A stretch of DNA of 64,000 nucleotides from a virus. Below the pieces are notes generated by a model. The model had not been told where the DNA came from. It saw only the letters and a program-made list of their open reading frames with translations, and did not search any database. The translations under genes were made by a program, and so were the position numbers. Position 1 is the stretch's first letter. Each line of letters begins with the position of its first letter. Location of the stretch: the IMG/VR virus record IMGVR_UViG_3300022752_003639, positions 1 through 64,000 of that record; one strand, given 5' to 3'. This document shows, piece after piece, positions 1 to 20,749 of the stretch.

Positions 1-1
1 T

Positions 2-307
2 ATAGGACCATGGTATCATTTTACACCAGAAATACATGGAAACTTTCTAAAAATTAATTTAGTACAAAATTTAATTAACGATCAATATACAGGAAAACAA
101 AGTTCATTTAGTAGTAAAGTCAACATTAATAAACAAGTCTGGACAAATATATCACCTAAACCAAAACTTATAGGTTATGAAGGTAGAAATAATCCGCCTG
201 GATACATACCTCATTTTATGAAAGAGTTTCGCAATACGATTATGCGAAATACAACAGACTCTGATATATATTTCGATTTAGGTACCTTCTATGAGAGTTT
301 CAAATGA
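2..307 (+). CDS. Partial CDS (C-terminal end, runs off left edge), hypothetical
   Basis: Open frame IGPWYHF...KPKLIGYEG...YESFK-TGA; stop overlaps next start (ATGA). Confidence 0.7.
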   Translation: MGPWYHFTPEIHGNFLKINLVQNLINDQYTGKQSSFSSKVNINKQVWTNISPKPKLIGYEGRNNPPGYIPHFMKEFRNTIMRNTTDSDIYFDLGTFYESFK

Positions 308-849
308 AAACTGTAACATGGCGTACAGGCACAAACAAAGACCTAGATCAAATATTTGACGCCTATAGGATAGAACAATATGAGGATAAAAATCATAAGT
401 TATCTAAAAACTATAGCACAGAATTTTACAAGTTTTCCATTGCACTTACAATCGCATTCAATGACAATGATGAACCTGAAATATGTTCAAGCATAGCCAG
501 TAGAGATTGTTGGCCAAAAGGCGCTTATCGTATTTTAAGCAGATTATGGAAAACTAAAAATTATAGAATTACTCACAGCAAGTTTATAAGTGAAGCAATG
601 GTCGGAAACGCCAGTAGTCAAATTCAATGGCTAAAAAATAATACAGATTGTAAACTTTATTTTATAAGTCGAGAAACAGGTAACTGGATGCGCTGGACAG
701 CAGAACATTTTGATAGCCAGTATGGGTTAAAATTCATAATTGCACCTAATAAATACCTAACTTGCCCAAATGAATGTGATAATAGTTGCTGGCAACACAT
801 TATTTATAATGGCAATAAAAATATATTAAAAACATGGAAACAGCGATAA
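304..849 (+). CDS. Hypothetical protein, possible GNAT-like fold
   Basis: 181 aa ORF coupled to both neighbours; fold is a weak guess from helix/strand pattern. Confidence 0.45.
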   Translation: MKTVTWRTGTNKDLDQIFDAYRIEQYEDKNHKLSKNYSTEFYKFSIALTIAFNDNDEPEICSSIASRDCWPKGAYRILSRLWKTKNYRITHSKFISEAMVGNASSQIQWLKNNTDCKLYFISRETGNWMRWTAEHFDSQYGLKFIIAPNKYLTCPNECDNSCWQHIIYNGNKNILKTWKQR

Positions 850-1637
850 CTAAGCCTTTGTTACCTTTGAAAGATATACCAAAAACTGTTTGGTTATTAA
901 TCCCTATCAACCTATTAGGTTTGTATGCTCTCTATGTTATTCTTTTCAAGGATACACCTTCATGGTGGTGGATTGCTTCTTTAATAGGGTTTATCTTTCA
1001 AAAAGAGATTGGCATCAGTGCAGGTTATCATAGGCTTTTTAGTCATTATAGTTATTCAGTTTCTAGACCTATTAAGTTGTTTATTCTCTGGTGCGGGTTA
1101 ATTTCTGGACAGGGAAGTCCATATTGGTGGGCAGCACTACATAGAGGCTATCATCATAAACACAGTGATACTGATAAAGATCCTCATAGCCCTAAACATG
1201 GATTCTGGCACAGTTACATTTTATGGCTTTTTAAGATTAAAGAAAAAGATATCAGTACCAGATACATAATCGATCTAATTAGGGATAAAGATTTGGCTTT
1301 TTCTCACAAACATTACCTAGTTATCTTAACCTTAAGTCATCTAATTATCGCTTTGATAAACTTTAACTTATGGTTATTTTTTATGGTATTGCCTGCTTTT
1401 CTTACCTTACATTGCTATTCAATACAAACAAGTTTTCAACATTTAGGAAAGTTAGGTTATCAAACTTACGATACAAAGGATAACAGTTGCAATAATATAT
1501 TGTTATTTCCCATTGTATTTGGTGATGCATGGCATAATAATCATCATGCAGACCCAGGTAATCCAAACTTTGGTAAACGTTGGTGGGAAATTGACACTAC
1601 TTTTTGGATTATAAAATTATTACGTAGTCATCAATAA
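834..1637 (+). CDS. Membrane fatty acid desaturase 1 (Delta9/DesC-like)
   Basis: His boxes HRLFSH, HRGYHH, WHNNHH; DPHSP and WWEID motifs; hydrophobic segments. Confidence 0.92.
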   Translation: METAITKPLLPLKDIPKTVWLLIPINLLGLYALYVILFKDTPSWWWIASLIGFIFQKEIGISAGYHRLFSHYSYSVSRPIKLFILWCGLISGQGSPYWWAALHRGYHHKHSDTDKDPHSPKHGFWHSYILWLFKIKEKDISTRYIIDLIRDKDLAFSHKHYLVILTLSHLIIALINFNLWLFFMVLPAFLTLHCYSIQTSFQHLGKLGYQTYDTKDNSCNNILLFPIVFGDAWHNNHHADPGNPNFGKRWWEIDTTFWIIKLLRSHQ

Positions 1638-2510
1638 ATGGATTATCCTATAAACTTCATTAGAGAAATAGAACCAGAAGAGAGTACGTATACATATGTG
1701 TACATAGACCTTGTTCATAGTTGTAATATGGAATGTAATAACTGTTATCTACCAAATAGAGATTATCCCGATGCTGATTTTGAAAAACTTAAAAATTTTA
1801 TATCTAAGTTTAATCTACGAACAGAGTTTAGGTTAATAGGTGGTGAACCTACTTTATATTCCCATTTAGTTGCATTAATATCATTTATTAAAAGTAATCC
1901 ATTGAACCATAGGGTGACATTGGTTACAAACGGGTTAAAATTATCCAGCAAACGATATGTAAAGTCTTTATCAGATGCAGGACTTAATAGAATTTATCTG
2001 AGCATGAACGGATTTGACAATGACGATATATATCAAAAATTAGATAATATGAAGTGCGCAAAATTAAAAATGAAGGCTCTGGAAAACATTTTAGACAATC
2101 AAATCGGAATGTCAGTAGGATATATTATTGTTAAGAATGTAAATGAATATTTAATTGACAATATGATTCGATATTTTAAGAAAAATAGACAACGCATGAC
2201 TTTTGAATTTAGGAATATAGGAGAAGTGGGTAGAAATATGCTTTCGGTAGATCTAGTAGAAAATTATGAATATAACGAAATAATTGATCTACTATCTGAA
2301 AAATTTAACTTTAATAAAACTGCGGTACATATTGATGACGAATATAGTAGAGTATACAAGGTAGACAAATTTATCATTAGAGTAAATGATTGGGGAATGT
2401 TCAAAAGAGGAATAGCACATTCCGCAGATAAAATTAGAGGTAGAATGACTGAAAATTATAAGGTCGCTCCATTCTTATCTCATATTAAACAGAATGAATT
2501 TAAATATTAA
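1638..2510 (+). CDS. Radical SAM protein (MoaA-like core, no evident SPASM cysteines)
   Basis: CNMECNNC (CxxxCxxC), GGEPT, TNG motifs. Confidence 0.88.
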   Translation: MDYPINFIREIEPEESTYTYVYIDLVHSCNMECNNCYLPNRDYPDADFEKLKNFISKFNLRTEFRLIGGEPTLYSHLVALISFIKSNPLNHRVTLVTNGLKLSSKRYVKSLSDAGLNRIYLSMNGFDNDDIYQKLDNMKCAKLKMKALENILDNQIGMSVGYIIVKNVNEYLIDNMIRYFKKNRQRMTFEFRNIGEVGRNMLSVDLVENYEYNEIIDLLSEKFNFNKTAVHIDDEYSRVYKVDKFIIRVNDWGMFKRGIAHSADKIRGRMTENYKVAPFLSHIKQNEFKY

Positions 2511-2512
2511 AA

Positions 2513-3652
2513 GTGCTTAAAAATCTGGGTTATTATCAGGTCGGAGACAAAATTTTTTACGGTAAAACAGAAGCTATCTATCACTCTTATTTTTCAAAAG
2601 AGGAGATAAGCTGGCATTTTTATAATAATGTATGGAATAATTTTTCTAAAACTAAAATGCATACTTTAGAAAATATTAATTTGGAAACTATCTATAAAAA
2701 CCGCGCTATGCAACTGCGAGAAAAGTATGACTACATAATTCTAAACTATAGTGGAGGTGCAGACAGCCATAATGTCTTAATGACCTTTTTGAATAATAAT
2801 TTAAGACTAGATGAGATTTATGTTCAAAGAAGTGCGTCAGTTGATGAAAAGATTTATACACCTAATAAAGAAAACAAAAATGCTGAAAATATCTTAAGCG
2901 AATGGGATTATACAATTAAGCCTTCATTAGATTATGTAACTAAGTATTTTCCAAATATTAAAATAAACTTAGATGATATATTTGAAAAAAACTTAGATAA
3001 ACTTATACATGAAGATATGTTTTTACAATCTAGTAACTTTATAGGATTGTTCGAATTATTAAGACAGTCTTCTTATTCAAACACTATTGAAAAAAATTTA
3101 AATGCAGGTATAAAAACTTGTTCTATCTTTGGAATAGATAAACCTATAGTAATTATTAAAAATAATGAAGGATTTGTGCTATTCTCAGACCAAGAAATCT
3201 CTTCTGCATCGAGATGTATTAAAAAAGACCTTAAAAACTTTAGCTTGGTTGAATTATTTTACTGGACTCCTGATATGCCCGAGATAGCATTTAAACAGGC
3301 ACAAGTAGTATATGATTTCTTTTCAAAAAATGAAACTTATAAAAAAATGATGGATATTAAAAATATAGATCAAAAAAACTTACATTTAATATATGATGCC
3401 TATCGAAAAGCTGTTATTCCTTTAATATATTCAACTTGGAATAATGATACATTTCAAGTTAATAAACCTCAACCGTATAACCAAGTTGGAAGGTCACGGG
3501 ATAAGATATACATAAATAGTGCAGATTTTTCAAATGTGATCGAAAAATATAATAGTCATTTAACAGATTGGAAAACAGTTTTAGATGAAAAATACTTCTT
3601 CAAGGAGTTAAACAAATTTAAAACTTATTTTACACCTTGGTATAAATTATGA
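2513..3652 (+). CDS. PP-loop (adenine nucleotide alpha-hydrolase / asparagine-synthetase-like) protein
   Basis: GTG start; YSGGADS PP-loop motif; no QueC Zn-binding cysteine cluster. Confidence 0.7.
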   Translation: MLKNLGYYQVGDKIFYGKTEAIYHSYFSKEEISWHFYNNVWNNFSKTKMHTLENINLETIYKNRAMQLREKYDYIILNYSGGADSHNVLMTFLNNNLRLDEIYVQRSASVDEKIYTPNKENKNAENILSEWDYTIKPSLDYVTKYFPNIKINLDDIFEKNLDKLIHEDMFLQSSNFIGLFELLRQSSYSNTIEKNLNAGIKTCSIFGIDKPIVIIKNNEGFVLFSDQEISSASRCIKKDLKNFSLVELFYWTPDMPEIAFKQAQVVYDFFSKNETYKKMMDIKNIDQKNLHLIYDAYRKAVIPLIYSTWNNDTFQVNKPQPYNQVGRSRDKIYINSADFSNVIEKYNSHLTDWKTVLDEKYFFKELNKFKTYFTPWYKL

Positions 3653-4530
3653 AAATTATAATAACAACACTGTTACTTTTCTTTTCTACAAACATTTTTG
3701 CAAATGAACAGTTTAAAATATTAGTAGGATTTCCTCCTGGTGGAGGACAATACCTGATAGGGACTATTATACAAAAAGGATTCGGAGATGAAGGAATAAA
3801 TTCAATATTAGTCACAAAACCTGGAGCAGGAGGAGTAATTGCTTTAAATGAATGCATTAAAAATGCAGATCCTTTAACACTATGTTTGGTGTCTCAATCG
3901 CAACTTGTTTTTTCATCTAAATTGACTTCAAATGTTGTAAATTATGATTCTAAAAATTTAACCTATGTTAAATTAATCGGCAGTAGCCCTATGGTTTTAG
4001 TTACATACAAAGATAATTTTAAGAATATAGATGAAATTATTCATGAAATAAAATATAAGGAAATTAATTTAGGTGGTGGTGCTTTAGGAAATTCTTATGT
4101 TATAAATCAGTTTTTGATATTTTTAAAGGCTTTCAAGTCTAAAAATATAGAATATAATGGAGTTGGTCCTGCTCTAAAAGACCTTATAGGAAAACATATT
4201 TCATATGTAATAGCCCCATATACGGCTGTCAAGAGTCAAATTGATTCAAATTCTATAAGATTAGTTGCTAGCTTTTCTAATAAAATATATTTTCCTAATA
4301 TACCAGTTATTGATGAGTTCGTAGTAACAGATACAATTTTTGGATTTGTAGCGAATGAAAGTATAAATGAAAGTGCAATTCAAACGCAAAAACAAGCTTT
4401 ATCTAGGATTTTGAATTCTGATAAAGTAAAAACTGCATTGTTAGATCAAGGTATCTTTATATTGAAAGACGATAATGATGTCTATTTTAAAAGAGAAATA
4501 ATAAAACAAATCAAAAACATAGAAAATTAG
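3649..4530 (+). CDS. Bug/TctC-family periplasmic solute-binding protein
   Basis: Signal-like N-terminus; ILVGFPPGGG, KPGAGGVIA, YNGVGPALKDLIG motifs. Confidence 0.85.
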   Translation: MKIIITTLLLFFSTNIFANEQFKILVGFPPGGGQYLIGTIIQKGFGDEGINSILVTKPGAGGVIALNECIKNADPLTLCLVSQSQLVFSSKLTSNVVNYDSKNLTYVKLIGSSPMVLVTYKDNFKNIDEIIHEIKYKEINLGGGALGNSYVINQFLIFLKAFKSKNIEYNGVGPALKDLIGKHISYVIAPYTAVKSQIDSNSIRLVASFSNKIYFPNIPVIDEFVVTDTIFGFVANESINESAIQTQKQALSRILNSDKVKTALLDQGIFILKDDNDVYFKREIIKQIKNIEN

Positions 4531-4531
4531 A

Positions 4532-5152
4532 TTATAAATTTAACAATTTAAGCCTATATTTTTGTTTTAGAGCAAACAGACAAATAATTGTTTCTACTTC
4601 GAAAGTTTTCTTATGTTCGGGAAAATAAAATTTATGAAGAGGGGATCTACAAGTTTCTCCAACTGCATATACAGCTTCGTAAAAACAGTTATATTTGTTT
4701 TCTATAATACCTTCTTCATTAAATTTTTTCCAAATTTTATCTAGCGCCTGTTGATGTTTTAAAGGTCGTCTACTATAAAAACTATAATATCCGTTCTTTT
4801 CTCCATGATTCATTAGAATATACATGCACTTACCGTATATATTCATACTTAATTTATAATTACCTAAATCTTTTTTTTCGAAATTGGAAAAATGTCTATG
4901 TGCGTACCAATATTGTATATTGTCTGGAAAATATCCGTTAACAGAACATACTAACTTATTATTATAATACGCACCAACAATTATTCTTTGTTTTTCTTCG
5001 AAGTCATTAGTAAATTTTTCAATCATAAAATTAGAAAAGTCGATAGTTTTTCTTTGATTTAAAAACTTGTCACTACTATTAAACAACTCTATATATGCGT
5101 CTAAATCATCAATGTCTAAAATTTTAATTGAAAAATCATCTTTATCCATCAA
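4532..5152 (-). CDS. GNAT-like hypothetical protein
   Basis: IKILDIDDLDAY...IVGAYYNNKLVCSV resembles GNAT beta1-alpha1 and beta2-beta3 pattern. Confidence 0.5.
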   Translation of the reverse strand: MMDKDDFSIKILDIDDLDAYIELFNSSDKFLNQRKTIDFSNFMIEKFTNDFEEKQRIIVGAYYNNKLVCSVNGYFPDNIQYWYAHRHFSNFEKKDLGNYKLSMNIYGKCMYILMNHGEKNGYYSFYSRRPLKHQQALDKIWKKFNEEGIIENKYNCFYEAVYAVGETCRSPLHKFYFPEHKKTFEVETIICLFALKQKYRLKLLNL

Positions 5153-6365
5153 ATTTCTCCACTACAACAGCAGCACATTTACCACCGAAACCAAAACTGT
5201 TTTTTATGCCATATTTAAAATTTGGAAATTCCCTTTTATGATTATCAGATATTAATATATCGATTGGATTTTTTAAATTTGCAATTCTTCCTATTTTATT
5301 CATATTCATAGATTGAATAAGATATGCTAATTCAATTAATCCACAGGCAGACATAGTATGACCAATATTAGCCTTTAAAGCCATTAAAGCAGAATTAGGA
5401 AAATACTCCTTTATAATATTATATTCTGATGGATCACCGTTCGGCGTGCTTGTAGCATGACAACTTATTATAGATATCTGATCTCTTTGTAAATTAGCGT
5501 ATTTAAGTGCCATATCTATACTTTGTCTAGCTCCTATAGCTGCTGGGTCCATTCCGGTTTCGTGATATAATTCTGTTGCGAAACCAATAGATTTAATCAC
5601 GGCTAGAACATTATCTCCATCTTTTTCCGCTTTAGGCAATGACTTCAAAACCAATGAACAAGCACCTTCACCCATTACAAAACCCTTACGATCTTTATCA
5701 AACGGTGATGATATAGGCGGTTCTCTTAAATCCAAAGCTCCTATGGATTGAAACATAAAAATATCAATAGGATCTACCATTACATCACACGCACCTACAA
5801 GAATTTGATCATAAACTTCTGCCTGTAGTAATCTTACAGCATAATCTATCATGAGTATTCCAGTAGCACAGGCACTAGTCATACATAGATTTATACCTTT
5901 GAATCCAAACTTTTTACAAATTAAATAACCTAAATTGTCTCTCTGAGCTGCTAAAGCCTGTCTAGGGCTTAGCCTTTTATTGTCAATTAATTTAGAAACA
6001 TTCTCTAATATTAGTTTTTGAGGACCACCTAACGACCCAAATATAACACCAGTATTAGTTTTATTCATAATATTGGCATCAAGCACAGCCCTATTAGCTG
6101 AGTATAAACCAATTATAGAATATCTATCTAGATTTTTTTGTTCTGTATTATCTAAAAAGTCTAGTTTTATTTCAGCATCGTTAATTTGAAAAGCACCATT
6201 TATTTTGATAGCAGGGTAAGTTTTTTTATCAAAATTTTTAATTTCGGATATTGGAGATTGAGCCTGTAAGTACCTATTCCAATTAATATTAATATCTTCC
6301 CCTAAGGCATCGACTATACCTAATCCAATGATAGCAATTTCATCCATTTTTTTATAAAATGTCAT
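5142..6365 (-). CDS. fabF: Beta-ketoacyl-ACP synthase II-like
   Basis: Cys-His-His triad: TSACATG, HATSTPNGD, KANIGHT; C-terminal NSFGFGG. Confidence 0.92.
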   Translation of the reverse strand: MTFYKKMDEIAIIGLGIVDALGEDININWNRYLQAQSPISEIKNFDKKTYPAIKINGAFQINDAEIKLDFLDNTEQKNLDRYSIIGLYSANRAVLDANIMNKTNTGVIFGSLGGPQKLILENVSKLIDNKRLSPRQALAAQRDNLGYLICKKFGFKGINLCMTSACATGILMIDYAVRLLQAEVYDQILVGACDVMVDPIDIFMFQSIGALDLREPPISSPFDKDRKGFVMGEGACSLVLKSLPKAEKDGDNVLAVIKSIGFATELYHETGMDPAAIGARQSIDMALKYANLQRDQISIISCHATSTPNGDPSEYNIIKEYFPNSALMALKANIGHTMSACGLIELAYLIQSMNMNKIGRIANLKNPIDILISDNHKREFPNFKYGIKNSFGFGGKCAAVVVEKFDG

Positions 6366-6379
6366 TTAGTCTTGAAATA

Positions 6380-7195
6380 TTAAACTGTATAAGCTCTAGG
6401 ATCATTTCTATCAATTATAAAATATTTCTTAACTAACCAACCGGAAAAATCAAACTCCCCTTTTTTCATAGCCTGATTATATTCGCTTGGATAAGCATGA
6501 TGATTATTATGTAATCCTTCACCTAGAGTATACCAATGTATCCATTTATTATTTTGACTTTTGTCAGAAGTTTCAAAATTTCTATATGAAATACTTGTTG
6601 GTACATGGCTTAAAGTGGTGACAAACACACCGCTTCCGAATATATACCAACCCAAAGGAGCAAATAATATAAAAATAGGAATATGCCAATCTATTAGTCC
6701 TAACACTAATGAAAATATAATCAGACAAGCCCATATCTTAAAATAATTATGATGTACAAATTTAATTGTAGGGTCTCGTATTAAATCCTTAGGTAATATT
6801 CTTACCTGTTTAATTTTATTAAACCATTCAAAAGGTTTAATTTCCCATAATCCTAAGCTTTCTTTTATACTATTTTTTGGACTATGAATATCAAGATCTT
6901 CATCACTATATCTATGGTGATGTCTATGACTAGTAGCATATAATATAGGACTTCCTGCACCAATCAACACACTTGCCCAAGTTAAAAAAACATGTTTCTT
7001 TTTAGTGGTAACAAATGATCTATGAGCGAAATATCTATGCATAGCTATATGATTAGCAGGAATCACTACAATTTTACTAATCAAAAATGCTAAAATAGTC
7101 CACAACCATTCACCACTAAAGAATGGATATATTAAACTAAACCCCCAAGAAAGCAAACCTAATGCCCAAATGGTTCTTAATTTGTATATGTTCAT
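6380..7195 (-). CDS. Membrane fatty acid desaturase 2
   Basis: HRYFAH, HRHHH, LHNNHH boxes. Confidence 0.92.
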   Translation of the reverse strand: MNIYKLRTIWALGLLSWGFSLIYPFFSGEWLWTILAFLISKIVVIPANHIAMHRYFAHRSFVTTKKKHVFLTWASVLIGAGSPILYATSHRHHHRYSDEDLDIHSPKNSIKESLGLWEIKPFEWFNKIKQVRILPKDLIRDPTIKFVHHNYFKIWACLIIFSLVLGLIDWHIPIFILFAPLGWYIFGSGVFVTTLSHVPTSISYRNFETSDKSQNNKWIHWYTLGEGLHNNHHAYPSEYNQAMKKGEFDFSGWLVKKYFIIDRNDPRAYTV

Positions 7196-7827
7196 ACACC
7201 GTATTTGCTTATAATTATATTAAAAATGCTTTCGTCGAAGAACCCAATCGTAAATGCTCTTCTATCGTTATTAATATTATGTACACTATGTATCAAATCT
7301 GTACGCATAATATTCCATCGGTGGCTTGGAAAAATTGTAGAATTTACCTTACTTAATACATTTAGGTCAAAACAATGAGACCATGGATCCCTAATTAGTT
7401 CTTTACCATTTTCCTGCCACCAAATAGTTTCAACGTTTGTTCCACCGGAGGTTAGCAAAAAACTAATACAAAATGGACCACGGGTTTTTCCGTCTGTATG
7501 AGGATGTAACTGGCAGATATTATTGCCATTTGCTTTTATACTTTGAAAACCTATAGTTAAAGTTAATCCTTCTAATTCAGGAATTAAATTATTTATAAAT
7601 TGTGTATACCTATCAGTTAGCGGCCATCTAGAATAAATTGCATCATCTACTTCTGTATTATCAAGTTGCTTTATTTTTTGTTGAGATAGCTTTTGTTTGA
7701 GAGATCCTGTTTTAGAATCTTCGATGATATCGATTATATCTTTTGGCAATTCTGGTAAATCTAAAATAGAGAATGTTTTCATTTTTTTTGCAAACAATAC
7801 TTTATAAAAAGACCTGGTAAGTCCCAT
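7192..7827 (-). CDS. Fe(II)/2-oxoglutarate dioxygenase-like protein
   Basis: HTD...HSV..R metal/2OG motif pattern. Confidence 0.65.
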   Translation of the reverse strand: MGLTRSFYKVLFAKKMKTFSILDLPELPKDIIDIIEDSKTGSLKQKLSQQKIKQLDNTEVDDAIYSRWPLTDRYTQFINNLIPELEGLTLTIGFQSIKANGNNICQLHPHTDGKTRGPFCISFLLTSGGTNVETIWWQENGKELIRDPWSHCFDLNVLSKVNSTIFPSHRWNIMRTDLIHSVHNINNDRRAFTIGFFDESIFNIIISKYGV

Positions 7828-8543
7828 TCAAATTTTTTAACTGCATAGTAAGGACTTTGGCTATTGGCATGATGATTATTATGCAGTCCACTTCCAAGCA
7901 TTAAGATATTTACTAAAGTATTATTCTTACTATTATCGTTTGTATCAAAATTCCTGTATCCCCATTTATGGCATACAATGTCTATCAATAAACTACTAGT
8001 ATGAAAAGTCCATACCGCACTTAAACTAAACAAAAATATAGCCAACTTTAAATCAATTAAAGCGGTGATGCTATATACAATTATAACAAATTCTAAATAG
8101 TGTCTATGTAAGAAATTATGAAATGGATCCTTGGCCAGGTCTGAAATTATTTTAGGAGAAAATTTAACCATAGGCCAATTTACCAACCAAACATCATACC
8201 ATTTATTATAGAGTGGACTTTGAGGATCTTTTCTTGTATCTGAATATCTATGATGTATTCTATGTGTTCCTACCCATCCATAACTACTTCCTAGAAAATT
8301 TAATGATCCTAATAATATCAAAATTATTTCTTTCCATCTTTGAGTATTAAAACTTCTATGGGCACATAATCTATGATAACCTATTTCGCCTCCAATCTTT
8401 CCAAATAAGATCCAACCTAGTATAGTTAATAATAAATCTTTATAATTCCAATCTATATAAAATAATAAAATTATTATAAGGTGATGGAAAACAATTAGTA
8501 TCTTAAATTGTATATCCATATTTGGTTTATAAAATTTTAACAT
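7779..8543 (-). CDS. Membrane fatty acid desaturase 3
   Basis: HRLCAH, HRIHH, LHNNHH boxes. Confidence 0.92.
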   Translation of the reverse strand: MLKFYKPNMDIQFKILIVFHHLIIILLFYIDWNYKDLLLTILGWILFGKIGGEIGYHRLCAHRSFNTQRWKEIILILLGSLNFLGSSYGWVGTHRIHHRYSDTRKDPQSPLYNKWYDVWLVNWPMVKFSPKIISDLAKDPFHNFLHRHYLEFVIIVYSITALIDLKLAIFLFSLSAVWTFHTSSLLIDIVCHKWGYRNFDTNDNSKNNTLVNILMLGSGLHNNHHANSQSPYYAVKKFEWDLPGLFIKYCLQKK

Positions 8544-9319
8544 GGAATAATAGGACCTTGGTATGCCAGGATAGCTTTTTTTATTACCTTTTCTAAAGTA
8601 GAATTATCTCTTACGTCATTATAAATTAAAATATCAATTCGTTCTTTATCACTATAATTTTTATAAGCATGTTGATGATAACCGTTTAAGTACCAAATTT
8701 TACCGCATGTAAAATTAGCAACAAAATATTTCGAATTATTTTTATAATACGATAATTCTTCAAAAAAATATCTATCGCTATGGACCTCTTTAGAAACAAT
8801 ATGCGCTACATTTTTATCAGCAATAATTGGTATATGAATTATACACTGTTCGGGTTTATTATATTTTTTTATTAATTCGTCATTTTGATGACTATGCCAA
8901 CCTAGAGCGTGTCCTGGCCCAGATTTTACAATTTTGACCAATAAAGGTTTATCTGTTATACTAAGAACCAAATCCATTAATAATGGAAAATTTTTGGTTA
9001 CTTCTGTAGGATACCATCTTTGATCTTCAACGGGCCATTCGTAAAAATCTTCTAACTCGTTATTATCTTTATTTTTCCATCTAGCAAAGTGTTCCCTTAC
9101 AATAGAAGAATTTCCTGACTTATAAATTGTTGTAAGAGCACATTGTTTATACGATTTGTGAATTTCCTCAAGGAATGGTGTCAATTGAAAATATGGCGGA
9201 TGATAATTATGCCAAGTTCTATTTTTTAAAACTTCAGATTTTATACTATTAATATCAAATTGAATGCCTAATTCCATAAACGGAATAAATCTAAGATTGT
9301 TTATTGTTTTCAACTTCAT
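8537..9319 (-). CDS. Asp/Asn beta-hydroxylase-like (cupin) oxygenase
   Basis: WHSH...IHIPII...HQHAYKN...RIDIL pattern as in AspH-type enzymes. Confidence 0.6.
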   Translation of the reverse strand: MKLKTINNLRFIPFMELGIQFDINSIKSEVLKNRTWHNYHPPYFQLTPFLEEIHKSYKQCALTTIYKSGNSSIVREHFARWKNKDNNELEDFYEWPVEDQRWYPTEVTKNFPLLMDLVLSITDKPLLVKIVKSGPGHALGWHSHQNDELIKKYNKPEQCIIHIPIIADKNVAHIVSKEVHSDRYFFEELSYYKNNSKYFVANFTCGKIWYLNGYHQHAYKNYSDKERIDILIYNDVRDNSTLEKVIKKAILAYQGPIIPC

Positions 9320-10070
9320 TTTTTATTAAAAGGTATTTAATTACTAATCCAGGTAAATCAAATTCTCCTGGTTTATGATTAAAGTATGGATTACCTGGTT
9401 GGGCATGATGATTATTATGTAGACCACTACCTCCTGTAACAATATTAACTAACAGATTATTTCTACTTCGGTCTAGAATGTCATAATTCCTATATCCGTA
9501 TTTGTGACAAACTATATCTATCAGATAAGCACCAACATGAAATTGTATCACAGATGGAATAATAATCACAAAAATTAAAAACTTATAATTAATTAATGCC
9601 AACAAAACAATTGTTGTATAACTTAATATAAAATAATTTTTGTGAATAAAGAGATGCCATTTATCTTTAATCAAATCGGAAATGTTTTTTGGACTTACAA
9701 TAAAAGGTTTCCAAACGACTAACCAAACTTTCCAAAGTTTATTAAAATATGGACTGTGAGGATCCTTATCAGTATCTGCTGTTTTATGATGAATTCTGTG
9801 AACTCCACACCAAGATAAACTACTTCCTACAAAATTTAAACTACCTAAAATTAGTAGGATTCGTTCCTTGGTCTTTGTAGTTTTAAAACTACGGTGGGCA
9901 AATAATCTGTGAAATCCTATTTCACCTCCGATTTTTCCTATTAAAATATATGATAAAAATGTGAAAAGGAAATAATACCATTCAACATTAACGATAAAAA
10001 AACTTGAAATAAAAAGTATGTGGGTGGTTAATAGTAATGAACGAATTTTAGTAAGAGTATTAACGTGCAT
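9291..10070 (-). CDS. Membrane fatty acid desaturase 4
   Basis: HRLFAH, HRIHH, LHNNHH boxes; closely similar to desaturase 3. Confidence 0.92.
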   Translation of the reverse strand: MHVNTLTKIRSLLLTTHILFISSFFIVNVEWYYFLFTFLSYILIGKIGGEIGFHRLFAHRSFKTTKTKERILLILGSLNFVGSSLSWCGVHRIHHKTADTDKDPHSPYFNKLWKVWLVVWKPFIVSPKNISDLIKDKWHLFIHKNYFILSYTTIVLLALINYKFLIFVIIIPSVIQFHVGAYLIDIVCHKYGYRNYDILDRSRNNLLVNIVTGGSGLHNNHHAQPGNPYFNHKPGEFDLPGLVIKYLLIKNEVENNKQS

Positions 10071-10440
10071 AATTGTTTATGAAATCCTGTTCGGAAATTT
10101 CAACAATTTCGTAAGTAAAAGTAAATTTATTTGAATACCCCTGTTCATTATGAAAAATAGTATTTTCATTGTAAAGAACATCTAGTCTATTTTTACATTC
10201 TAATGCGGTTTCTTGAGTATCATATATTCGTTCTGAAATAAGAATATTTCCATTTAACCAACGTTTGAATCCTATTTGTCGACCATCATTTACATATTCT
10301 TTAACTATTTCTTGATAAAGAGGTACATTACCTGGTTTAAAAACGTATGGTGTTAAATTAAAAAGTGTAAGTTGAGCATCCTCACTTAAAAGGTTAGTAT
10401 CATGAATTATTGTAAATGTTTTATAAACCCAAAAGCTCAT
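10060..10440 (-). CDS. Hypothetical protein (first gene of leftward operon)
   Basis: 126 aa ORF with AAGGA SD upstream. Confidence 0.7.
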   Translation of the reverse strand: MSFWVYKTFTIIHDTNLLSEDAQLTLFNLTPYVFKPGNVPLYQEIVKEYVNDGRQIGFKRWLNGNILISERIYDTQETALECKNRLDVLYNENTIFHNEQGYSNKFTFTYEIVEISEQDFINNYAR

Positions 10441-10450
10441 ATTTTGTCCT

Positions 10451-10479
10451 TATAAATAAAATTTATTATATATTTATTG
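10451..10479. promoter_or_regulatory. Back-to-back T4-late-like promoter motifs in divergent intergenic gap
   Basis: TATAAATA at 10451-10458 (+) and ATAAATA on the minus strand within 10471-10479. Confidence 0.45.
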
Positions 10480-10486
10480 ATAGACT

Positions 10487-11263
10487 ATGTTATATTCAAA
10501 CGTTTCGAGCATTAAAATATTACAATTAATCAGTACTGTGATTACATTGTACCTTATGACATTACAATTTAATCTTTATTGGTGGCTTTTATCTTTTTTT
10601 GTTTATTTTTTAACAGGTTGCTTAGGTATTACAATAACTTACCATCGTTATCTTTCTCATAAGGCATTCAAAATGCCTAAAGTTTTTGAATATCTTTTTA
10701 GTATGTTTGGTGCTCTTGGAGGAACAGGATCAACTATAGGTTGGTTAGCCGTGCATAATGTTCATCACAAATTTAGCGACAAAGATAAGGATCCGCATAG
10801 CCCACATTTACTCGGGCCCAAATTGTTGCTCACAAATTATAATTATAAATTTAATCCTCTAGATGCTAAATTATTACTTAGAGATAAATTTCATATTATA
10901 CTGCATCAGTATTATAATCTAATACTTTTAATTTGGGCATTCTTATTATTGGCTATTAATTACAAACTTTTTTTGTTTGCCTTTATTGTTCCTGTTTGTT
11001 TTCAAATTTGGGCAAGTAATATAAGCAATTACGCTAACCATATGTTTGGATACCAAAATTACGAAACAGGCGAAGGAAGTAAAAATACCTGGTGGGTAAG
11101 TGCAATTACTTGGGGTGAAGGATGGCATAATAATCATCATGCAGAACCCTGGCATTACAGTTTTCAAAGAAAATGGTGGGAAATAGATATTAGCGGATAT
11201 GTAATTTATTTAATTGTTATACTTACAGGTAATAAAAAGAGCCTATATAATTCAAAATATTAA
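10487..11263 (+). CDS. Membrane fatty acid desaturase 5
   Basis: HRYLSH, HNVHH, WHNNHH boxes; TWGEGWHNNHH and WWEID. Confidence 0.93.
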   Translation: MLYSNVSSIKILQLISTVITLYLMTLQFNLYWWLLSFFVYFLTGCLGITITYHRYLSHKAFKMPKVFEYLFSMFGALGGTGSTIGWLAVHNVHHKFSDKDKDPHSPHLLGPKLLLTNYNYKFNPLDAKLLLRDKFHIILHQYYNLILLIWAFLLLAINYKLFLFAFIVPVCFQIWASNISNYANHMFGYQNYETGEGSKNTWWVSAITWGEGWHNNHHAEPWHYSFQRKWWEIDISGYVIYLIVILTGNKKSLYNSKY

Positions 11264-11272: not shown

Positions 11273-11301
11273 TTGACATACTAGCAACAAACTAATATAA
11301 T
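11273..11301 (+). promoter_or_regulatory. Sigma70 promoter for tRNA cluster
   Basis: TTGACA-17 nt-TATAAT. Confidence 0.85.
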
Positions 11302-11428: not shown

Positions 11429-11518
11429 GCCTGGGTGGTGAAATAGGTAGACACAAGGGACTTAAAATCCCTCGCTTCCGAAAGGGGCATGCCGGTTCGA
11501 GTCCGGCCCTAGGCACCA
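11429..11518 (+). tRNA. tRNA-Leu(UAA)
   Basis: GCCTGGG/CCTAGGC acceptor, AGGGA-CT-TAA-AA-TCCCT anticodon arm, long V arm, encoded CCA. Confidence 0.95.
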
Positions 11519-11526: not shown

Positions 11527-11605
<79 letters not shown>

Positions 11606-12005: not shown

Positions 12006-12392
12006 ATGCCAACTCATAAATTACCACTAGAACTCGGATATACCGATGCTAGAGGAAAAATTTTACCTATAGTACATGACATGGCCAATGTACAAATGAT
12101 TTGGTCTGAAACAGGTGCCATTAGGGCCAACCATTATCATAAAACAGACACTCATGTTTGTTTCTTAGTCAGCGGAGATATGGATTATTATTGGCGTGAC
12201 CACGGTGAAACAAAAATTCATAAAGAACGTATAGTTGCAGGGGAGTTGTTTAAAACTGGACCATTAATCGACCATGAAATGGTATTTACAAGTCCATCTG
12301 TAATGGTTGTTATTAGTGAACATAAGCGTGATGCTGTAAGTTATGATGAAGACATTGTAAGAATTCGTCCGTTACATGAGCAATATGTTTAA
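12006..12392 (+). CDS. Cupin, nucleotide-sugar isomerase/epimerase-like
   Basis: RANHYH...H cupin motifs; sugar-gene context. Confidence 0.7.
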   Translation: MPTHKLPLELGYTDARGKILPIVHDMANVQMIWSETGAIRANHYHKTDTHVCFLVSGDMDYYWRDHGETKIHKERIVAGELFKTGPLIDHEMVFTSPSVMVVISEHKRDAVSYDEDIVRIRPLHEQYV

Positions 12393-13527
12393 GTACCAAT
12401 CTTGTAGATGTTGCGGCAATAATAATATTAATCCCTGGTTATCATTGCCATCTAGTCCTGTAGCTAATGCATTGTTTGAGATACCGAATTTCACAAAGTA
12501 TCCTTTAGATTTAAACTACTGTGAACAGTGTGGTCATTTGCAATTGGCAGCAGCACCTGATCCAGACAAGGTTTTTGCCAGTTACAGATATAAATCTGCG
12601 GTTTCTAAATCATTTAGAAATCATTTTACCGCTTTGGCAAATTATGCTTTTGAAAAATTCAATCTTTCTAATAATAGTAAAGTTTTAGAAATCGGCAGCA
12701 ATGATGGATTCTTGTTACTCCAATTTAAAGAAAAAGGATGCCAGGTCCAAGGAGTTGAGCCGAGTGCATATCTTGTAAATGAATACGTAGAAAATAACAT
12801 GCCATTGGTAAACGGGTTTTTTACCACTGCACTGGTCAATAAACGTGAATGGACTGCTAAATTTGATTTAGTTTGTGCTAATAATGTATTGGCGCATATT
12901 CCAGATACAGACGATGTAATAAAGGGCATATCACGATCGTTAAAGGATGGCGGAGTTCTAATGGTCGAATGCGGCCATCGTGATGCTATATTACAAGGAA
13001 CACATTTAGATAATGTTTATCATGAGCATATTGACTATTATAGCCCCCATTCATTTGGCACATTATTAGCAAAACATGGCCTGACTGTTGAAGAATTTGA
13101 GCTTATAAACTCACATGGTTTAAGTTTTAGATTAATTGCTAGAAAAGTAGATAAACCATCTATTACAACATTTGAACCTGTAAACATAGATATACAACGT
13201 ACGAAGGTAGAAAATTATATAGTTCAACGTAAGAATAACATGAACTCTATTATTTTAGGAAGACCTTTTGTAGCCTACGGTGCAGCGGCTAAAGCTGTAA
13301 CAAGTTTATACATGTTAGATTTAGTTTCAAATTCATTGTTTGGGGTGTACGATGACAATGAACTAAAACAAGGATTTTATTTCCCAGGAACAAACATAGT
13401 AATAGAAAGTCCTGAAAAAATGAATAAAGATTGTCTTGTAGTTGTTACTGCTTGGAATTTCTTTGAAGAAATTAAGAATAAGTTAATGTCTCGTGGACAC
13501 AAAGGAGAAATTGTCTGTATGCAGTAG
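12376..13527 (+). CDS. NDP-sugar C-methyltransferase (3-C-methyltransferase type)
   Basis: N-terminal CRCC...CEQC Zn site, EIGSNDG SAM motif, ANNVLAH, YHEH, YGAAAK, DDNELKQG. Confidence 0.9.
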   Translation: MSNMFKYQSCRCCGNNNINPWLSLPSSPVANALFEIPNFTKYPLDLNYCEQCGHLQLAAAPDPDKVFASYRYKSAVSKSFRNHFTALANYAFEKFNLSNNSKVLEIGSNDGFLLLQFKEKGCQVQGVEPSAYLVNEYVENNMPLVNGFFTTALVNKREWTAKFDLVCANNVLAHIPDTDDVIKGISRSLKDGGVLMVECGHRDAILQGTHLDNVYHEHIDYYSPHSFGTLLAKHGLTVEEFELINSHGLSFRLIARKVDKPSITTFEPVNIDIQRTKVENYIVQRKNNMNSIILGRPFVAYGAAAKAVTSLYMLDLVSNSLFGVYDDNELKQGFYFPGTNIVIESPEKMNKDCLVVVTAWNFFEEIKNKLMSRGHKGEIVCMQ

Positions 13528-14231
13528 TATACGGCACTGGCAAATGGGCCAGGCTATTAGGAAATAAGATTAAGAACCATGGACTTTTACCAGTTCATAT
13601 CGGATCTGATGACAGATTAGCGTTATTTTCAAGATCTCAATATCCCAAATTTACTCAGGGATATCCTTTGTTTATCCTTTCTAAAACTGAAAATCATTTA
13701 AATGATTTAAAAGATTGCCTACCACATTTACCTAAAGAAATTTATATAGAAAAAGGATTTGCTTCCGCCAACGAAAGGCGTAAGGCTAAAGAATTAGTTG
13801 GAGATATTCCGGTATTTTTTTTAAGTCAATACAGATTTAGTGAAATATTTACAGACTTTTTAGAACAACAAGAAACAATCTGTGGAATAAAATACAATTG
13901 GGCTGTAGAACAGCATTCAGCTCAAGAATGGATGTACCATATTGTTTCTATAGATAATTATTTGAAAAATAATAATTCTGATTTATATGTAGAACAGTTT
14001 GGACATTACGTTATAGATTCAATCAGCCAGGTCAACATTATCAAGAGCAAGATTAGATCTCTCATTATAGAAATAGAAACAACTACCGCAGATTATACCA
14101 TTGAACTAGGAAATACTAATTCTTTAAAAAGAGGTTCAACTGTTTTGACCGTAGTAAACAACGAAGATTGTCTCGGTGAACAAATTTCGCATATAATAAA
14201 TGATAAAAAAGAAAAGTTAGAAAGGTTATAA
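13515..14231 (+). CDS. Rossmann-fold oxidoreductase-like protein; start extended to CTG
   Basis: Frame open upstream of the track TTG (13668) to CTG 13515 with AAGGAG SD; gives YAVVYGTGKWA (GxGxxA). Confidence 0.6.
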   Translation: MYAVVYGTGKWARLLGNKIKNHGLLPVHIGSDDRLALFSRSQYPKFTQGYPLFILSKTENHLNDLKDCLPHLPKEIYIEKGFASANERRKAKELVGDIPVFFLSQYRFSEIFTDFLEQQETICGIKYNWAVEQHSAQEWMYHIVSIDNYLKNNNSDLYVEQFGHYVIDSISQVNIIKSKIRSLIIEIETTTADYTIELGNTNSLKRGSTVLTVVNNEDCLGEQISHIINDKKEKLERL

Positions 14232-15230
14232 ATGAAAATATTAATTTTAGGGTCTGATGGGTTTATAGGCTATCATTTAACTGATTCAATCCTACAAGAT
14301 GAAAAATTTGCAGAATATACAATTACAGGAATAGATGCCAATAAACTGCGCACAGACATGCTTCCGTCGTCTAACAGGTTCCAGTTTCATAAAGCTAATA
14401 TTTTACAGTCTAGACAATACATAGATTCTTTAATACAAGATACAGACATTGTATTACCGCTAGTAGCCATTGCTACACCAAAAATATATGTCGAACGTCC
14501 AATGGATGTATTTGAACTAGATTTTGAAGAAAATTTAAGAATATTGAAACTATGTCACAAACTAAACAAACGTGTAATTTTTCCTAGCACCAGCGAAGTA
14601 TATGGTAAAGGAATTGCACCATTTGACGAAAATACCACAGATTTAACCTATGGCCCAATTAAATATAGCCGATGGATTTATGCCTGTAGTAAACAGCTAT
14701 TGGACAGGGTGGTATTTGCCATGCATCAAAAGTCACCATTTCGTTTTACTTTGTTCAGGCCTTTTAATTGGGTAGGCCCATACCTGGACAGTTTAGAGTC
14801 AAGCTCAGAAGGATCTAGTAGACTAATTACTCAACTCATAAACGACGCTCAAATTAAAGGAGAAGTTACTTTAGTAGATGGAGGCAATCAGAAACGGTGT
14901 TTTACTGATGTAAGAGACGGAGTTTCAGCTCTAAAGGCTATGATATTAAATGAAGATATAAGTAACCAAAAAATTTACAATGTTGGTAATCCTTGGAACA
15001 ATTTCAGTGTGAGAGAAGTGGCAATGATGTTAATTGAAAAAATGAAGGAACACAAGTTAGTAACTGACGTACAGATTAAAGTAAAAAGCAGTGGAGAATT
15101 TTACGGTGCTGGGTATGAAGATGTTAGTAATAGAGTACCTAGTATAAACAACATTGGTAATGATTTGAACTGGACACCACAGTATACATTTGAGCAAAGT
15201 TTACATAATATTTTATCATCGCTTAAATAA
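14232..15230 (+). CDS. ArnA decarboxylase-domain-like UDP-glucuronate oxidase/decarboxylase (standalone)
   Basis: GSDGFIG, PLVAIATP, VFELDFEENL, FPSTSEVYG, RWIYACSKQLLDRV, FRPFNW match the ArnA C-terminal domain. Confidence 0.9.
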   Translation: MKILILGSDGFIGYHLTDSILQDEKFAEYTITGIDANKLRTDMLPSSNRFQFHKANILQSRQYIDSLIQDTDIVLPLVAIATPKIYVERPMDVFELDFEENLRILKLCHKLNKRVIFPSTSEVYGKGIAPFDENTTDLTYGPIKYSRWIYACSKQLLDRVVFAMHQKSPFRFTLFRPFNWVGPYLDSLESSSEGSSRLITQLINDAQIKGEVTLVDGGNQKRCFTDVRDGVSALKAMILNEDISNQKIYNVGNPWNNFSVREVAMMLIEKMKEHKLVTDVQIKVKSSGEFYGAGYEDVSNRVPSINNIGNDLNWTPQYTFEQSLHNILSSLK

Positions 15231-15248
15231 TACAAACGGAGACTATAT

Positions 15249-15386
15249 ATGGCTAAAGCAAAAGAACAAAGTCAAAGGAAATCTATTAAAAAAAGTACCA
15301 GTCAAGGCGGGTCTGCACCAAAAACAAGTACAATGAATAAGTCTAAACGTAGAAGTTACAAATCATATCGAGGACAGGGCAAATAG
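15249..15386 (+). CDS. Small basic protein (45 aa) ending RRSYKSYRGQGK; not in ORF track
   Basis: ATG with GGAG SD; Lys/Arg/Ser rich; followed by terminator. Confidence 0.8.
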   Translation: MAKAKEQSQRKSIKKSTSQGGSAPKTSTMNKSKRRSYKSYRGQGK

Positions 15387-15411
15387 TGTAATTCATACAT
15401 GAAATTAACTT

Positions 15412-15436
15412 AAATGCAGGCTAGTCCTGCATTTTT
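15412..15436 (+). terminator. Intrinsic terminator
   Basis: AAATGCAGG-CTAGT-CCTGCATTT then T run. Confidence 0.75.
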
Positions 15437-15437
15437 C

Positions 15438-15466
15438 TTGACATAATTTGAAAAATCTGTTAAAAT
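15438..15466 (+). promoter_or_regulatory. Sigma70 promoter
   Basis: TTGACA-17-TAAAAT. Confidence 0.75.
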
Positions 15467-15476
15467 AAACAAGGAG

Positions 15477-15899
15477 GTGAACATGAAACAATTTTCTCTT
15501 TTGGATAAAGTAGGTAATGATCTAGTTGGAATTTTCCATAGATTGGCATTATTTTCAATCGGTGCGGCTACAGTTTATGCAGCGGGATGGGAATTTTTTG
15601 AAATGTTCAAAAAACACCATGCTAGTATACAAGATCTTTTGTTAATGTTTATCTATCTTGAAATCGGTGCTATGGTTGGCATATATTTTAAAACAAATCA
15701 TATGCCTGTAAGATTTTTAATTTATATTGCTATAACAGCGTTGACACGGCATTTGGTTGATCTCGTCGCCCATAGTAAAGATAATCTAATTGAAATTATA
15801 GCCCTTGGCGGTACTACCCTAATCTTAGCAATAAGTTTGTTAATAATAAGATATGGTAGTAGTAAATTCCCCAGCACCTCAAAAGAAGAAATTCAATGA
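15477..15899 (+). CDS. psiE: Phosphate-starvation-inducible E family membrane protein
   Basis: DLLLMFIYLEIGAMVGIYF...PVRFLIYIAITALTR; four hydrophobic segments. Confidence 0.85.
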   Translation: MNMKQFSLLDKVGNDLVGIFHRLALFSIGAATVYAAGWEFFEMFKKHHASIQDLLLMFIYLEIGAMVGIYFKTNHMPVRFLIYIAITALTRHLVDLVAHSKDNLIEIIALGGTTLILAISLLIIRYGSSKFPSTSKEEIQ

Positions 15900-16147
15900 C
15901 AGAATTATTTAGAGATAAACTTGACCAAGAAATCAAGATAGGCGATTGTGTAGTATATTCACTACATAATTCTTTAGATTTGGGAATAGTCGTTAAAATA
16001 AATCCAAAAATGGTAAAAATTAAGAAAATAGAACCTCCAAGAAAGTGGCAATCGCTAACATACAATAGATATCCATCTGATTTGGTAAAGATAGAAGGAC
16101 CAGTAGTTAGTATGTATATATTGAAGAAATCATCAGGAGCAAAATAA
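15896..16147 (+). CDS. Hypothetical protein (KOW/SH3-like IKIGDCVV)
   Basis: Coupled ORF. Confidence 0.65.
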   Translation: MTELFRDKLDQEIKIGDCVVYSLHNSLDLGIVVKINPKMVKIKKIEPPRKWQSLTYNRYPSDLVKIEGPVVSMYILKKSSGAK

Positions 16148-16749
16148 TGCCAGCAACTTTTTTTATCAGTGACACACATTTCGGACACGAGAAAACCTGC
16201 ACCGTATTCAAACGGGCAGACGGCTCACCACTTCGTCCCTTCAGTTGTGCTGAAGAAATGGACGAGTTTATGGTAAAGGCTTGGAACGAACGTGTTCGTC
16301 CAAATGACAAGGTATACCACTGTGGCGATGTGGTTATCAATCGCAAGTTCCTACACATTCTTGGTAGGCTTAATGGAGACAAAGTGCTTATACGCGGTAA
16401 CCACGATATCTTTAAACTGGAGGACTACAGCCAATACTTTAGAGACATTCGTGCCTTTGACGTTAAGAACGGTATGATCTTTAGTCACGTTCCCATTCAT
16501 CCAGAAAGTCTTGGTAGGTTTGGCACCAACATTCACGGACACCTTCACGCCAACCGTGTGATGAAGATCACGGGTGTTAATCGAAAGTCCGGAGAATTTG
16601 AATATGGTGACGAGATCGACCCACGTTATTTCAACGTAAGTGTTGAACAAATTGACTTTGCTCCAATTAGTCTTGAAGAAGTTAATGCTAGGATTGTAGC
16701 ACAAGGAGGGCATGTAGGATTTCGTAACGGCAATGCGCCTATAATGTAG
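16147..16749 (+). CDS. Calcineurin-like metallophosphoesterase
   Basis: DTHFGH, HCGD, GNHD, HGHLH. Confidence 0.9.
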   Translation: MPATFFISDTHFGHEKTCTVFKRADGSPLRPFSCAEEMDEFMVKAWNERVRPNDKVYHCGDVVINRKFLHILGRLNGDKVLIRGNHDIFKLEDYSQYFRDIRAFDVKNGMIFSHVPIHPESLGRFGTNIHGHLHANRVMKITGVNRKSGEFEYGDEIDPRYFNVSVEQIDFAPISLEEVNARIVAQGGHVGFRNGNAPIM

Positions 16750-16758
16750 GAGAATATT

Positions 16759-16938: not shown

Positions 16939-16972
16939 TTTTTTGTAATTAAGTATTAAGATAATTAATAAT

Positions 16973-20741: not shown

Positions 20742-20749
20742 ATATTTTG

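Follow-up and report, generated by a model that had tools for sequence, protein, structure and literature searches.

The region considered here occupies positions 1-11263 of a 64-kb stretch of viral DNA (the window, 64,000 nucleotides) and forms the end of the IMG/VR virus record IMGVR_UViG_3300022752_003639 (138,457 bp, linear). All coordinates are those of the 64-kb stretch. Five membrane desaturases, a FabF-like ketosynthase, a GNAT-fold protein (GNAT-206), two candidate oxygenases, a radical SAM enzyme, and a PP-loop enzyme (PP-loop A) followed by a TctC/Bug-type binding protein are encoded among its fifteen genes (Table 1). According to open reading frame (ORF) calling, the genes are packed tightly into two operons, which converge at 4530/4532, apart from one gene that diverges at 10440/10487; most neighbours overlap, by 4-49 bases. 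An earlier note on this DNA had described two convergent operons, a divergent gene and five His-box desaturases, all of which were recovered, and had read them as a dedicated pathway for a polyunsaturated, hydroxylated acyl-amide or lipid.

Tail-fibre, baseplate and other phage families lie downstream of the region, and together with its source in an IMG/VR virus record they mark the DNA as phage. The G+C content is about 30%. By the CheckV estimate, the 138-kb record is 35% complete, so that the whole genome would measure roughly 400 kb. The contig is non-circular without a terminal repeat, and its first ORF runs off the contig end at position 1. This ORF (2-307) is the C-terminus of PP-loop B, a family of about 310 residues whose full-length relatives carry an SGGxDSE motif and show a weak match to QueC. 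A megablast search of the region against GenBank phages gave no match, and promoter and terminator scans scored no better than shuffled sequence.

Table 1. Genes of the studied region, with coordinates in the 64-kb stretch
Feature	Coordinates	Strand	Remarks
PP-loop B C-terminus, 101 residues	2..307	+	cut by contig end; homologues in 17-36 related loci
181-residue 4-Cys protein (g01)	304..849	+	conserved family without Pfam match
Desaturase 1 (des1), SCD/Delta9-type membrane di-iron by family	834..1637	+	Pfam 69.2 bits
Radical SAM enzyme, 290 residues	1638..2510	+	Pfam 61.7 bits, CxxxCxxC
PP-loop A, 379 residues, predicted asparagine-synthetase-type	2513..3652	+	SGGADS, model fold
TctC/Bug-type exported solute-binding protein	3649..4530	+	Pfam 67.7 bits; start overlaps PP-loop A stop
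GNAT-fold predicted acyltransferase, 206 residues (GNAT-206)	4532..5152	-	model fold, PDB profile; overlaps ketosynthase gene end
KAS-II (FabF)-like ketosynthase	5142..6365	-	both Pfam ketoacyl-synthase domains; intact Cys-His-His-Lys
Desaturase 2 (des2)	6380..7195	-	Pfam; 76% identical to L151:9989-10813
Fe(II)/2-oxoglutarate oxygenase-like protein, 211 residues	7192..7827	-	HxD...H...R triad; likely start 7782
Desaturase 3 (des3)	7779..8543	-	Pfam FA_desaturase, His boxes
260-residue protein, probable cupin or Asp/Asn-beta-hydroxylase-like oxygenase	8537..9319	-	between des4 and des3
Desaturase 4 (des4), sister clade of des3	9291..10070	-	Pfam FA_desaturase
126-residue protein (p126)	10060..10440	-	first gene of minus-strand operon; orthologue in same place in L090/L151
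Desaturase 5 (des5)	10487..11263	+	Pfam FA_desaturase; divergent from minus-strand operon

Conserved gene order in related phages

The comparison set consisted of 225 related viral loci; 78 loci were fetched with PP-loop A as the anchor, 59 with the ketosynthase and 80 with desaturases, and they were scored with family profiles. IMG/VR as a whole holds at least 582 desaturase loci and at least 366 PP-loop A loci. On a 73-kb viral contig (L090/L151), the divergent des5 and the entire eight-gene minus-strand operon recur in the order of the window, and a PP-loop A gene follows. The earlier note had called for a synteny check in related phages, and this nine-gene block is indeed collinear, with identities to the window of 42-79% (des5 79%, p126 42%, des4 77%, the 260-residue protein 65%, des3 75%, the 211-residue protein 56%, des2 76%, ketosynthase 52%, GNAT 62%). 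Other loci keep parts of the arrangement. Locus L007 retains des4, the 260-residue gene and des3, and L084 retains g01, des1, PP-loop A and TctC, with the radical SAM gene and the ketosynthase operon absent within its 15.7 kb. Locus L150 combines eight desaturases, GNAT-206, PP-loop A and PP-loop B within 16 kb.

Conservation within L084 is uneven. Its PP-loop A (L084:7138-8286) is 88% identical to that of the window, but identity falls to 49-56% in the g01, des1 and TctC that flank it, which suggests either that the PP-loop gene alone was exchanged recently or that constraint is very uneven. Upstream of g01-des1 (L084:955-5836), this locus encodes an ATP-grasp protein (GARS_A-like), a nitroreductase, a 458-residue radical SAM enzyme and a 147-residue GNAT.

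Gene neighbourhoods were compared with chance by shuffling gene order 1000 times within 178 non-redundant loci and counting direct same-strand adjacency. Desaturases adjoin one another 59 times against an expected 18.7, and PP-loop A adjoins TctC 48 times against 7.1. Desaturases are also next to the ketosynthase (22 against 5.7), GNAT-206 (20 against 7.3) and g01 (10 against 1.8) more often than expected. A sixth enriched pair, GNAT-206 with PP-loop B, is taken up below. At most 2 of the 1000 shuffles reached the observed value for any of the six pairs, and none did so for the five given here. The same procedure gave no enrichment for desaturase with PP-loop B or for PP-loop A with PP-loop B.

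Desaturases, ketosynthase and their partner proteins

The five desaturases of the window match Pfam FA_desaturase (PF00487) with 58.7-74 bits, above the cut-off of 29.7. Nine histidines of the SCD1-type (stearoyl-CoA desaturase, SCD) di-metal site (H53, H58, H90, H93, H94, H197, H229, H232, and H233) do not vary among 16 phage desaturases. They comprise three His boxes (HxxxxH, HxxHH, and HxxHH), which align with those of mouse SCD1 (4ymk), and an extra His. By family, the five genes are intact SCD/Delta9-type membrane desaturases, a type characterised by Delta9 regiospecificity on C16/C18 chains, which these five may share. In a tree of 105 phage desaturases, they fall in separate supported clades, each with orthologues on other contigs; des1 forms a clade of its own with orthologues in L029, L143, L084 and L018. 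Because of this distribution, they are regarded as old paralogues and not as recent dosage copies, which argues against simple dosage or fluidity control and agrees with the view of the earlier note on the latter point.

Two or more desaturases lie within 10 kb in 45 of the 80 desaturase-anchored loci. The largest array seen is L189:4970-13314 (IMGVR_UViG_3300013006_001903), where a ketosynthase is followed by eight tandem desaturases and the 15-kb locus holds ten desaturases in all. Seven tandem desaturases are found in L172 and five in L169. Three separate pairs of GNAT-206 followed by a desaturase occur together with a radical SAM gene in L196:936-11584, and L175, L176, L180 and L184 likewise have genes in the order radical SAM, desaturase, GNAT-206.

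Over its full length, the ketosynthase can be aligned with FabF structures. The intact Cys-His-His triad reported earlier can be extended, as Cys166, His303, His336 and also Lys331 are invariant in 24 clade members. Its identity to bacterial FabF is about 31-36%, and with 242.6 bits it misses the NCBIfam fabF equivalog cut-off of 493.75; it is therefore called FabF-like and not a FabF equivalog. In the ketosynthase tree, viral lineages are separate from bacterial FabF, and adjacency to a desaturase is found in at least five of them. The closest metagenome homologue is 82% identical. A scan of IMG/VR with the single protein retrieved no relatives; a query with the alignment did.

For GNAT-206, the structure prediction suggested by the earlier note gave a model with a predicted local distance difference test score (pLDDT) of 95, which matches GNAT structures in Foldseek (E 3e-8) and in VIA-align (Z 14.5, root-mean-square deviation (rmsd) 3.1, 151 residues aligned). 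The family profile likewise matches GNAT chains in the PDB (E 1e-5). The product of 4532-5152 thus has a GNAT fold according to its model, and an acyltransferase role is predicted. No conserved Q/RxxGxG/A loop (beta4-alpha3) is visible in the family alignment, read by eye only. A narrow alignment scan with this family returned two loci only. The earlier note had allowed for up to two GNAT-like proteins, of which this one stands. The other candidate, the 181-residue protein (304-849), was rejected, with an hhalign probability of 0.3% against the GNAT-206 profile and no Pfam or PDB match.

At E values up to 5, Pfam has no match for the 126-, 181-, 211- and 260-residue proteins. In the 211-residue protein, H95, D97, H165 and R174 are invariant in five homologues and correspond to the HxD...H...R triad of Fe/2-oxoglutarate (2OG) oxygenases; the protein Atlas gave a weak lead. 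The 260-residue protein carries an invariant, cupin-like motif (WHSHQxD...H, HxH...H). An Atlas language-model search linked it to viral PF05118 clusters with a feature score of 0.96, and 21 of 30 matches fell in clusters bearing PF05118, but profile searches of Pfam and the PDB gave no match for the family. Of the two Fe/2OG-type oxygenases named in the earlier note, the one at 7192-7827 is upheld by its triad, whereas the one at 8537-9319 is only a probable oxygenase or hydroxylase, as judged from its motif and its language-model neighbours.

The 181-residue protein is the usual upstream partner of the des1 clade and belongs to a family with more than 50% identity across more than 180 clusters. 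It has four invariant cysteines (C61, C69, C154, and C162) in a symmetric pair of C-x7-C motifs and many invariant tryptophans. The family profile has no match in the PDB, and a function as a metal or redox partner is possible. The radical SAM enzyme exceeds its Pfam cut-off of 29.5 bits (Table 1), in agreement with the earlier note, and contains the motif CNMECNNC. Its core is generic MoaA/TrsS/Tes-like and reaches no NCBIfam equivalog. Relatives of this enzyme lie within 1.5 kb of a desaturase in 21 of 23 cases.

The PP-loop A/TctC pair

Homologues of PP-loop A fall into more than 380 clusters, and neither Pfam nor NCBIfam has a model that matches it. Within its SGGADS motif, S80, G82, D84 and S85 are invariant in 87 sequences, and its model (pLDDT 92) has a PP-loop fold, so that the SGGxDS PP-loop enzyme of the earlier note is confirmed. 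Foldseek matches LarE, TilS and NadE over the first 155 residues. In a wide VIA-align search, residues 3-372 match the asparagine synthetase AsnB (1ct9; Z 10.3, rmsd 5.3, 283 residues aligned), and three related entries, human ASNS, TsnB9 (7ylz) and beta-lactam synthetase (1jgt), follow with Z 8.1-9.1. The N-terminal Ntn (N-terminal nucleophile) glutaminase domain is absent from this 379-residue protein, whose model aligns only to AsnB residues 141-516. PP-loop A therefore resembles, in its predicted structure, a stand-alone AsnB-type synthetase domain without glutaminase, and an amide-forming activity is predicted. The earlier suggestion that a PP-loop enzyme might adenylate a carboxylate to form an amide is in keeping with this likeness to the carboxylate-adenylating domains of asparagine synthetase and beta-lactam synthetase.

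A search of 185,579 prokaryote genomes found relatives of PP-loop A on only five contigs, all of them from metagenome-assembled genomes and probably phage DNA binned in error; hardly any members of the family occur outside phages. Its closest metagenome homologues are 77-88% identical. The TctC-like protein exceeds its Pfam cut-off of 27 bits, which bears out its assignment as a Bug/TctC protein, and has a Sec signal peptide. Of 37 phage TctC-like proteins, 34 have such peptides, which suggests that the host is diderm.

No pair in the survey is tighter than PP-loop A and TctC. A locus often holds two to four copies of the pair, with up to four PP-loop A paralogues in one locus. A desaturase lies within 10 kb in 42 of the 78 PP-loop A loci and is missing from that distance in the other 36, and there are complete genomes that hold the pair and whose only desaturase is 30-200 kb away. 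Conversely, PP-loop A is found in 10 of the 80 desaturase-anchored loci and in 1 of the 59 ketosynthase-anchored loci, and a desaturase directly adjoining PP-loop A was seen once. Some PP-loop A loci, L079 (6469-7464) among them, encode a binding protein of the DctP type (TRAP; Pfam 158 bits) amid the PP-loop genes, alongside those of the TctC type; PP-loop enzymes may be coupled to binding proteins in general. A 491-residue radical SAM family recurs in 22 PP-loop A loci.

No acyl carrier protein (ACP, PF00550), AMP-binding ligase (PF00501), ferredoxin, rubredoxin or TctA was found in the 138-kb record, so that the absence of a visible ACP noted earlier for the window extends to the whole record. 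Two complete ketosynthase-bearing relatives gave no PF00550 match, no AMP-binding ligase was found in the complete ketosynthase-bearing relatives searched, and TctA was not found in four complete relatives. Upstream of g01-des1 in L084, ten scanned ORFs gave no Pfam ACP or AMP-binding match. The failure to find an ACP, ligase, ferredoxin or TctA implies host partners, and the phage enzymes presumably use the ACP, the electron donors and the TctAB of the host.

Immediately beyond the region, a perfect sigma-70-type consensus (TTGACA, 17-nt spacer, TATAAT) at 11273-11301 lies upstream of tRNA-Leu(TAA) (11429-11518) and tRNA-Met (11527-11605). The island continues at 12006-23223 as a mosaic of other helper genes, which include a Polysacc_synt_C fragment, a sugar C-methyltransferase, a nucleotide-sugar epimerase, PsiE, a metallophosphoesterase, glycosyltransferases, DUF6445, a methyltransferase, and GTP cyclohydrolase I.

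Proposed acyl-chain tailoring and carboxylate handling

Because the PP-loop A/TctC pair occurs without nearby desaturases, the region is better described as an acyl-chain module and a carboxylate module than as one demonstrated pathway. We regard it as somewhat probable that it is an auxiliary-gene island, presumably of a giant freshwater T4-related phage, in which these two recurrent modules stand side by side. The first would comprise the minus-strand genes from 10440 to 4532, des5, and the g01-des1-radical SAM group on the plus strand. Here, the FabF-like ketosynthase would extend acyl chains on the host ACP, and the GNAT-fold acyltransferase would transfer the acyl group to an acceptor. 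The five anciently diverged SCD-type desaturases would add double bonds that probably differ in position or in the substrate that receives them, the 2OG oxygenase and the cupin-type protein would probably hydroxylate, and the radical SAM enzyme would add a further modification. The outcome would be multiply unsaturated, oxygenated acyl chains, either in membrane lipids or on an acyl conjugate made by the GNAT. In the second module (2513-4530), the exported TctC-type protein would capture a carboxylate in the periplasm for uptake via the host TctAB, and the cytoplasmic asparagine-synthetase-type enzyme would adenylate it and form an amide. The phage probably re-tailors the fatty chains of the infected cell beyond simple control of membrane fluidity. 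The substrates, the product, the use of host ACP, electron donors and TctAB, and any meeting of the two modules are what we infer; gene identities, catalytic residues, folds, gene order and adjacency are observed.

The same genes can be read as one dedicated pathway, in which all fifteen make a single polyunsaturated, hydroxylated acyl-amide, whether a signal, a toxin or a special lipid, with the GNAT and/or PP-loop enzymes forming the amide and the binding protein supplying the head group. Much at the locus fits this proposal: all genes lie in two abutting operons, PP-loop A has the amide-forming fold of the AsnB/beta-lactam synthetase type, and the GNAT gene is coupled with that of the ketosynthase at this locus and with desaturase genes at others. 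In other phages, PP-loop B stands beside GNAT-206 above chance (though beside desaturases only about as often as chance would have it), L150 and L151 mix all families within 16-20 kb, and a good share of the PP-loop A loci (42 of 78) do have a desaturase within 10 kb. However, 36 of these loci do not, complete genomes keep their only desaturase 30-200 kb away from the pair, PP-loop A is rare in desaturase- and ketosynthase-anchored loci (10 of 80 and 1 of 59), and its direct contact with a desaturase is a single case. Up to four PP-loop A paralogues per locus would also fit many substrates better than one. Thus, the collinear block and the enriched adjacency of the pathway proposed earlier hold, but the PP-loop A/TctC pair is separable from it and a single linear pathway does not emerge from the survey; we consider it rather unlikely.

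At the other extreme, the desaturases and FabF might adjust membrane fluidity in cold fresh water, through Delta9 monoenes and C16 to C18 elongation, as independent helper genes, with the rest being unrelated cargo of a hyperplastic region. Published accounts of similar genes point this way. Cyanophage Delta9 desaturases have been characterised (Roitman et al., PMC5776448), 12 fatty acid desaturase (FAD) genes in four viral populations of cryopeg brine and of sea ice were read as fluidity helpers (Zhong et al., PMC7300359), and fabF, stearoyl-CoA desaturase and speH, the first two as lipid genes, are listed among the peculiar genes of freshwater pelagimyophages (Zaragoza-Solas et al., PMC7029224). 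All five desaturases of the window have Delta9-type His boxes, and its next 12 kb are a mosaic of unrelated helper genes. Nevertheless, one Delta9 desaturase suffices for fluidity control, and there are five here and up to ten in relatives, drawn from old, separate clades and kept in a fixed order between phages. Gene overlaps and the enriched adjacency with ketosynthase, GNAT, 4-Cys protein and radical SAM enzyme further point to joint use, which makes independent helper genes improbable. Still less can be said for a polyyne- or alkyne-type pathway like the cay/pgn clusters or JamABC, with the desaturases serving as acetylenases for a chain bound to a carrier. An operon with three or more membrane desaturases recalls such clusters, but searches of the 138-kb record and of complete relatives yielded neither an acyl-AMP ligase nor an ACP, the locus has a ketosynthase and a GNAT in their stead, and there is no sequence sign of acetylenase chemistry. 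The likeness to polyyne clusters drawn in the earlier note was rejected on the first of these grounds, and we hold this pathway to be very improbable.

Several points weigh against the two-module reading itself. Both modules share one operon here, GNAT-206 adjoins PP-loop B 9 times against an expected 3.1, and the 211-residue oxygenase family adjoins PP-loop A or TctC in other phages, so the modules may cooperate after all. A direct hand-over from FabF to the desaturases is not obvious, as desaturases normally use lipid- or CoA-bound chains and FabF uses ACP-bound ones. Related phages share ancestry, and their adjacency counts are not independent events. The record covers about 35% of the genome, and an ACP, a ligase or a redox partner could be encoded in the remaining 65% or so. 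The oxygenase assignment of the 260-residue protein is weakly evidenced, and the product and the enzyme activities are deduced from sequence and predicted folds.

A bolder reading has a virus-specific modular pathway that would build an acyl conjugate, multiply unsaturated and hydroxylated, as a lipid or signal dedicated to the virus rather than a fluidity tweak. One example would be an N-acyl amide with a head group that the phage binding protein imports and the AsnB-like or the GNAT enzyme ligates. In such a pathway, 5-10 tandem desaturases would give position-by-position unsaturation. We put this forward tentatively, as an idea with the chances against it. In any case, the conserved operon, the recurrence of its couplings across many phage lineages and the arrays of up to ten desaturases suggest that phage lipid and acyl chemistry is more elaborate than assumed, and the desaturases could have new regiospecificities. 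The PP-loop A/TctC-type pairing is also large, with its at least 366 viral loci compared with five contigs in all the prokaryote genomes searched, and would be the first hint of phage "capture and activate" pairs for carboxylates. Multi-copy phage desaturases and the combination of fabF and desaturase in phages are already published, and the view that phage desaturases are known only singly is out of date (PMC7300359). Full-text literature searches found no account of ketosynthase-desaturase operons, GNAT-desaturase cassettes or phage PP-loop/TctC pairs, and neither the extended operon nor the links with GNAT and PP-loop genes appear to have been reported.

Among known systems, the bacterial polyyne clusters (cay, pgn) and JamABC combine several desaturases with acyl-handling enzymes. 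The phage locus likewise unites several membrane desaturases and acyl-handling genes in one operon, but no sign was seen of the acyl-AMP ligase and the ACP that define such clusters (the search did not include a thioesterase), and a ketosynthase and a GNAT take their place. In ornithine-lipid synthesis, OlsB is an N-acyltransferase and OlsC an LpxO-like acyl hydroxylase that resembles Asp/Asn-beta-hydroxylases. A similar logic of N-acyltransferase and hydroxylase is possible for GNAT-206 and the 260-residue protein, although neither has a sequence match to these enzymes, an O-acyltransferase of the OlsA type was not seen, and ornithine-lipid synthesis does not include desaturases. Many Bug proteins of Bordetella are orphans without adjacent TctA/TctB. 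The phage TctC-type proteins share with such orphans the Sec signal peptide and the lack of an adjacent TctA or TctB, but they are phage-encoded, often multicopy, and each paired with a cytoplasmic PP-loop enzyme. PP-loop A shares the SGGxDS motif with AsnB, beta-lactam synthetase and TsnB9 (1ct9, 1jgt, 7ylz), and its whole 379-residue model superposes on their synthetase domain. Unlike these proteins, it has no glutaminase, is only 7-12% identical to them, and is coupled to an exported binding protein.

The closest precedents are viral. Like the freshwater pelagimyophages (PMC7029224), the phages considered here are low-G+C, T4-like freshwater phages with FabF and an SCD-type desaturase, and a speH-like gene occurs in several ketosynthase loci. 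In that study, the genes were only listed, and arrays, operon, GNAT/oxygenase partners and PP-loop/binding-protein pairs were not described. The viral fatty acid desaturases reported before (PMC5776448, PMC7300359) belong to the same SCD/DesC-type family with three His boxes, are found in tailed phages as well, and had already been seen in multiple copies per virus. In contrast to these, the desaturases of the window represent five old clades and share a fixed operon with the genes of a ketosynthase, a GNAT-fold protein, a radical SAM enzyme and two probable oxygenases.

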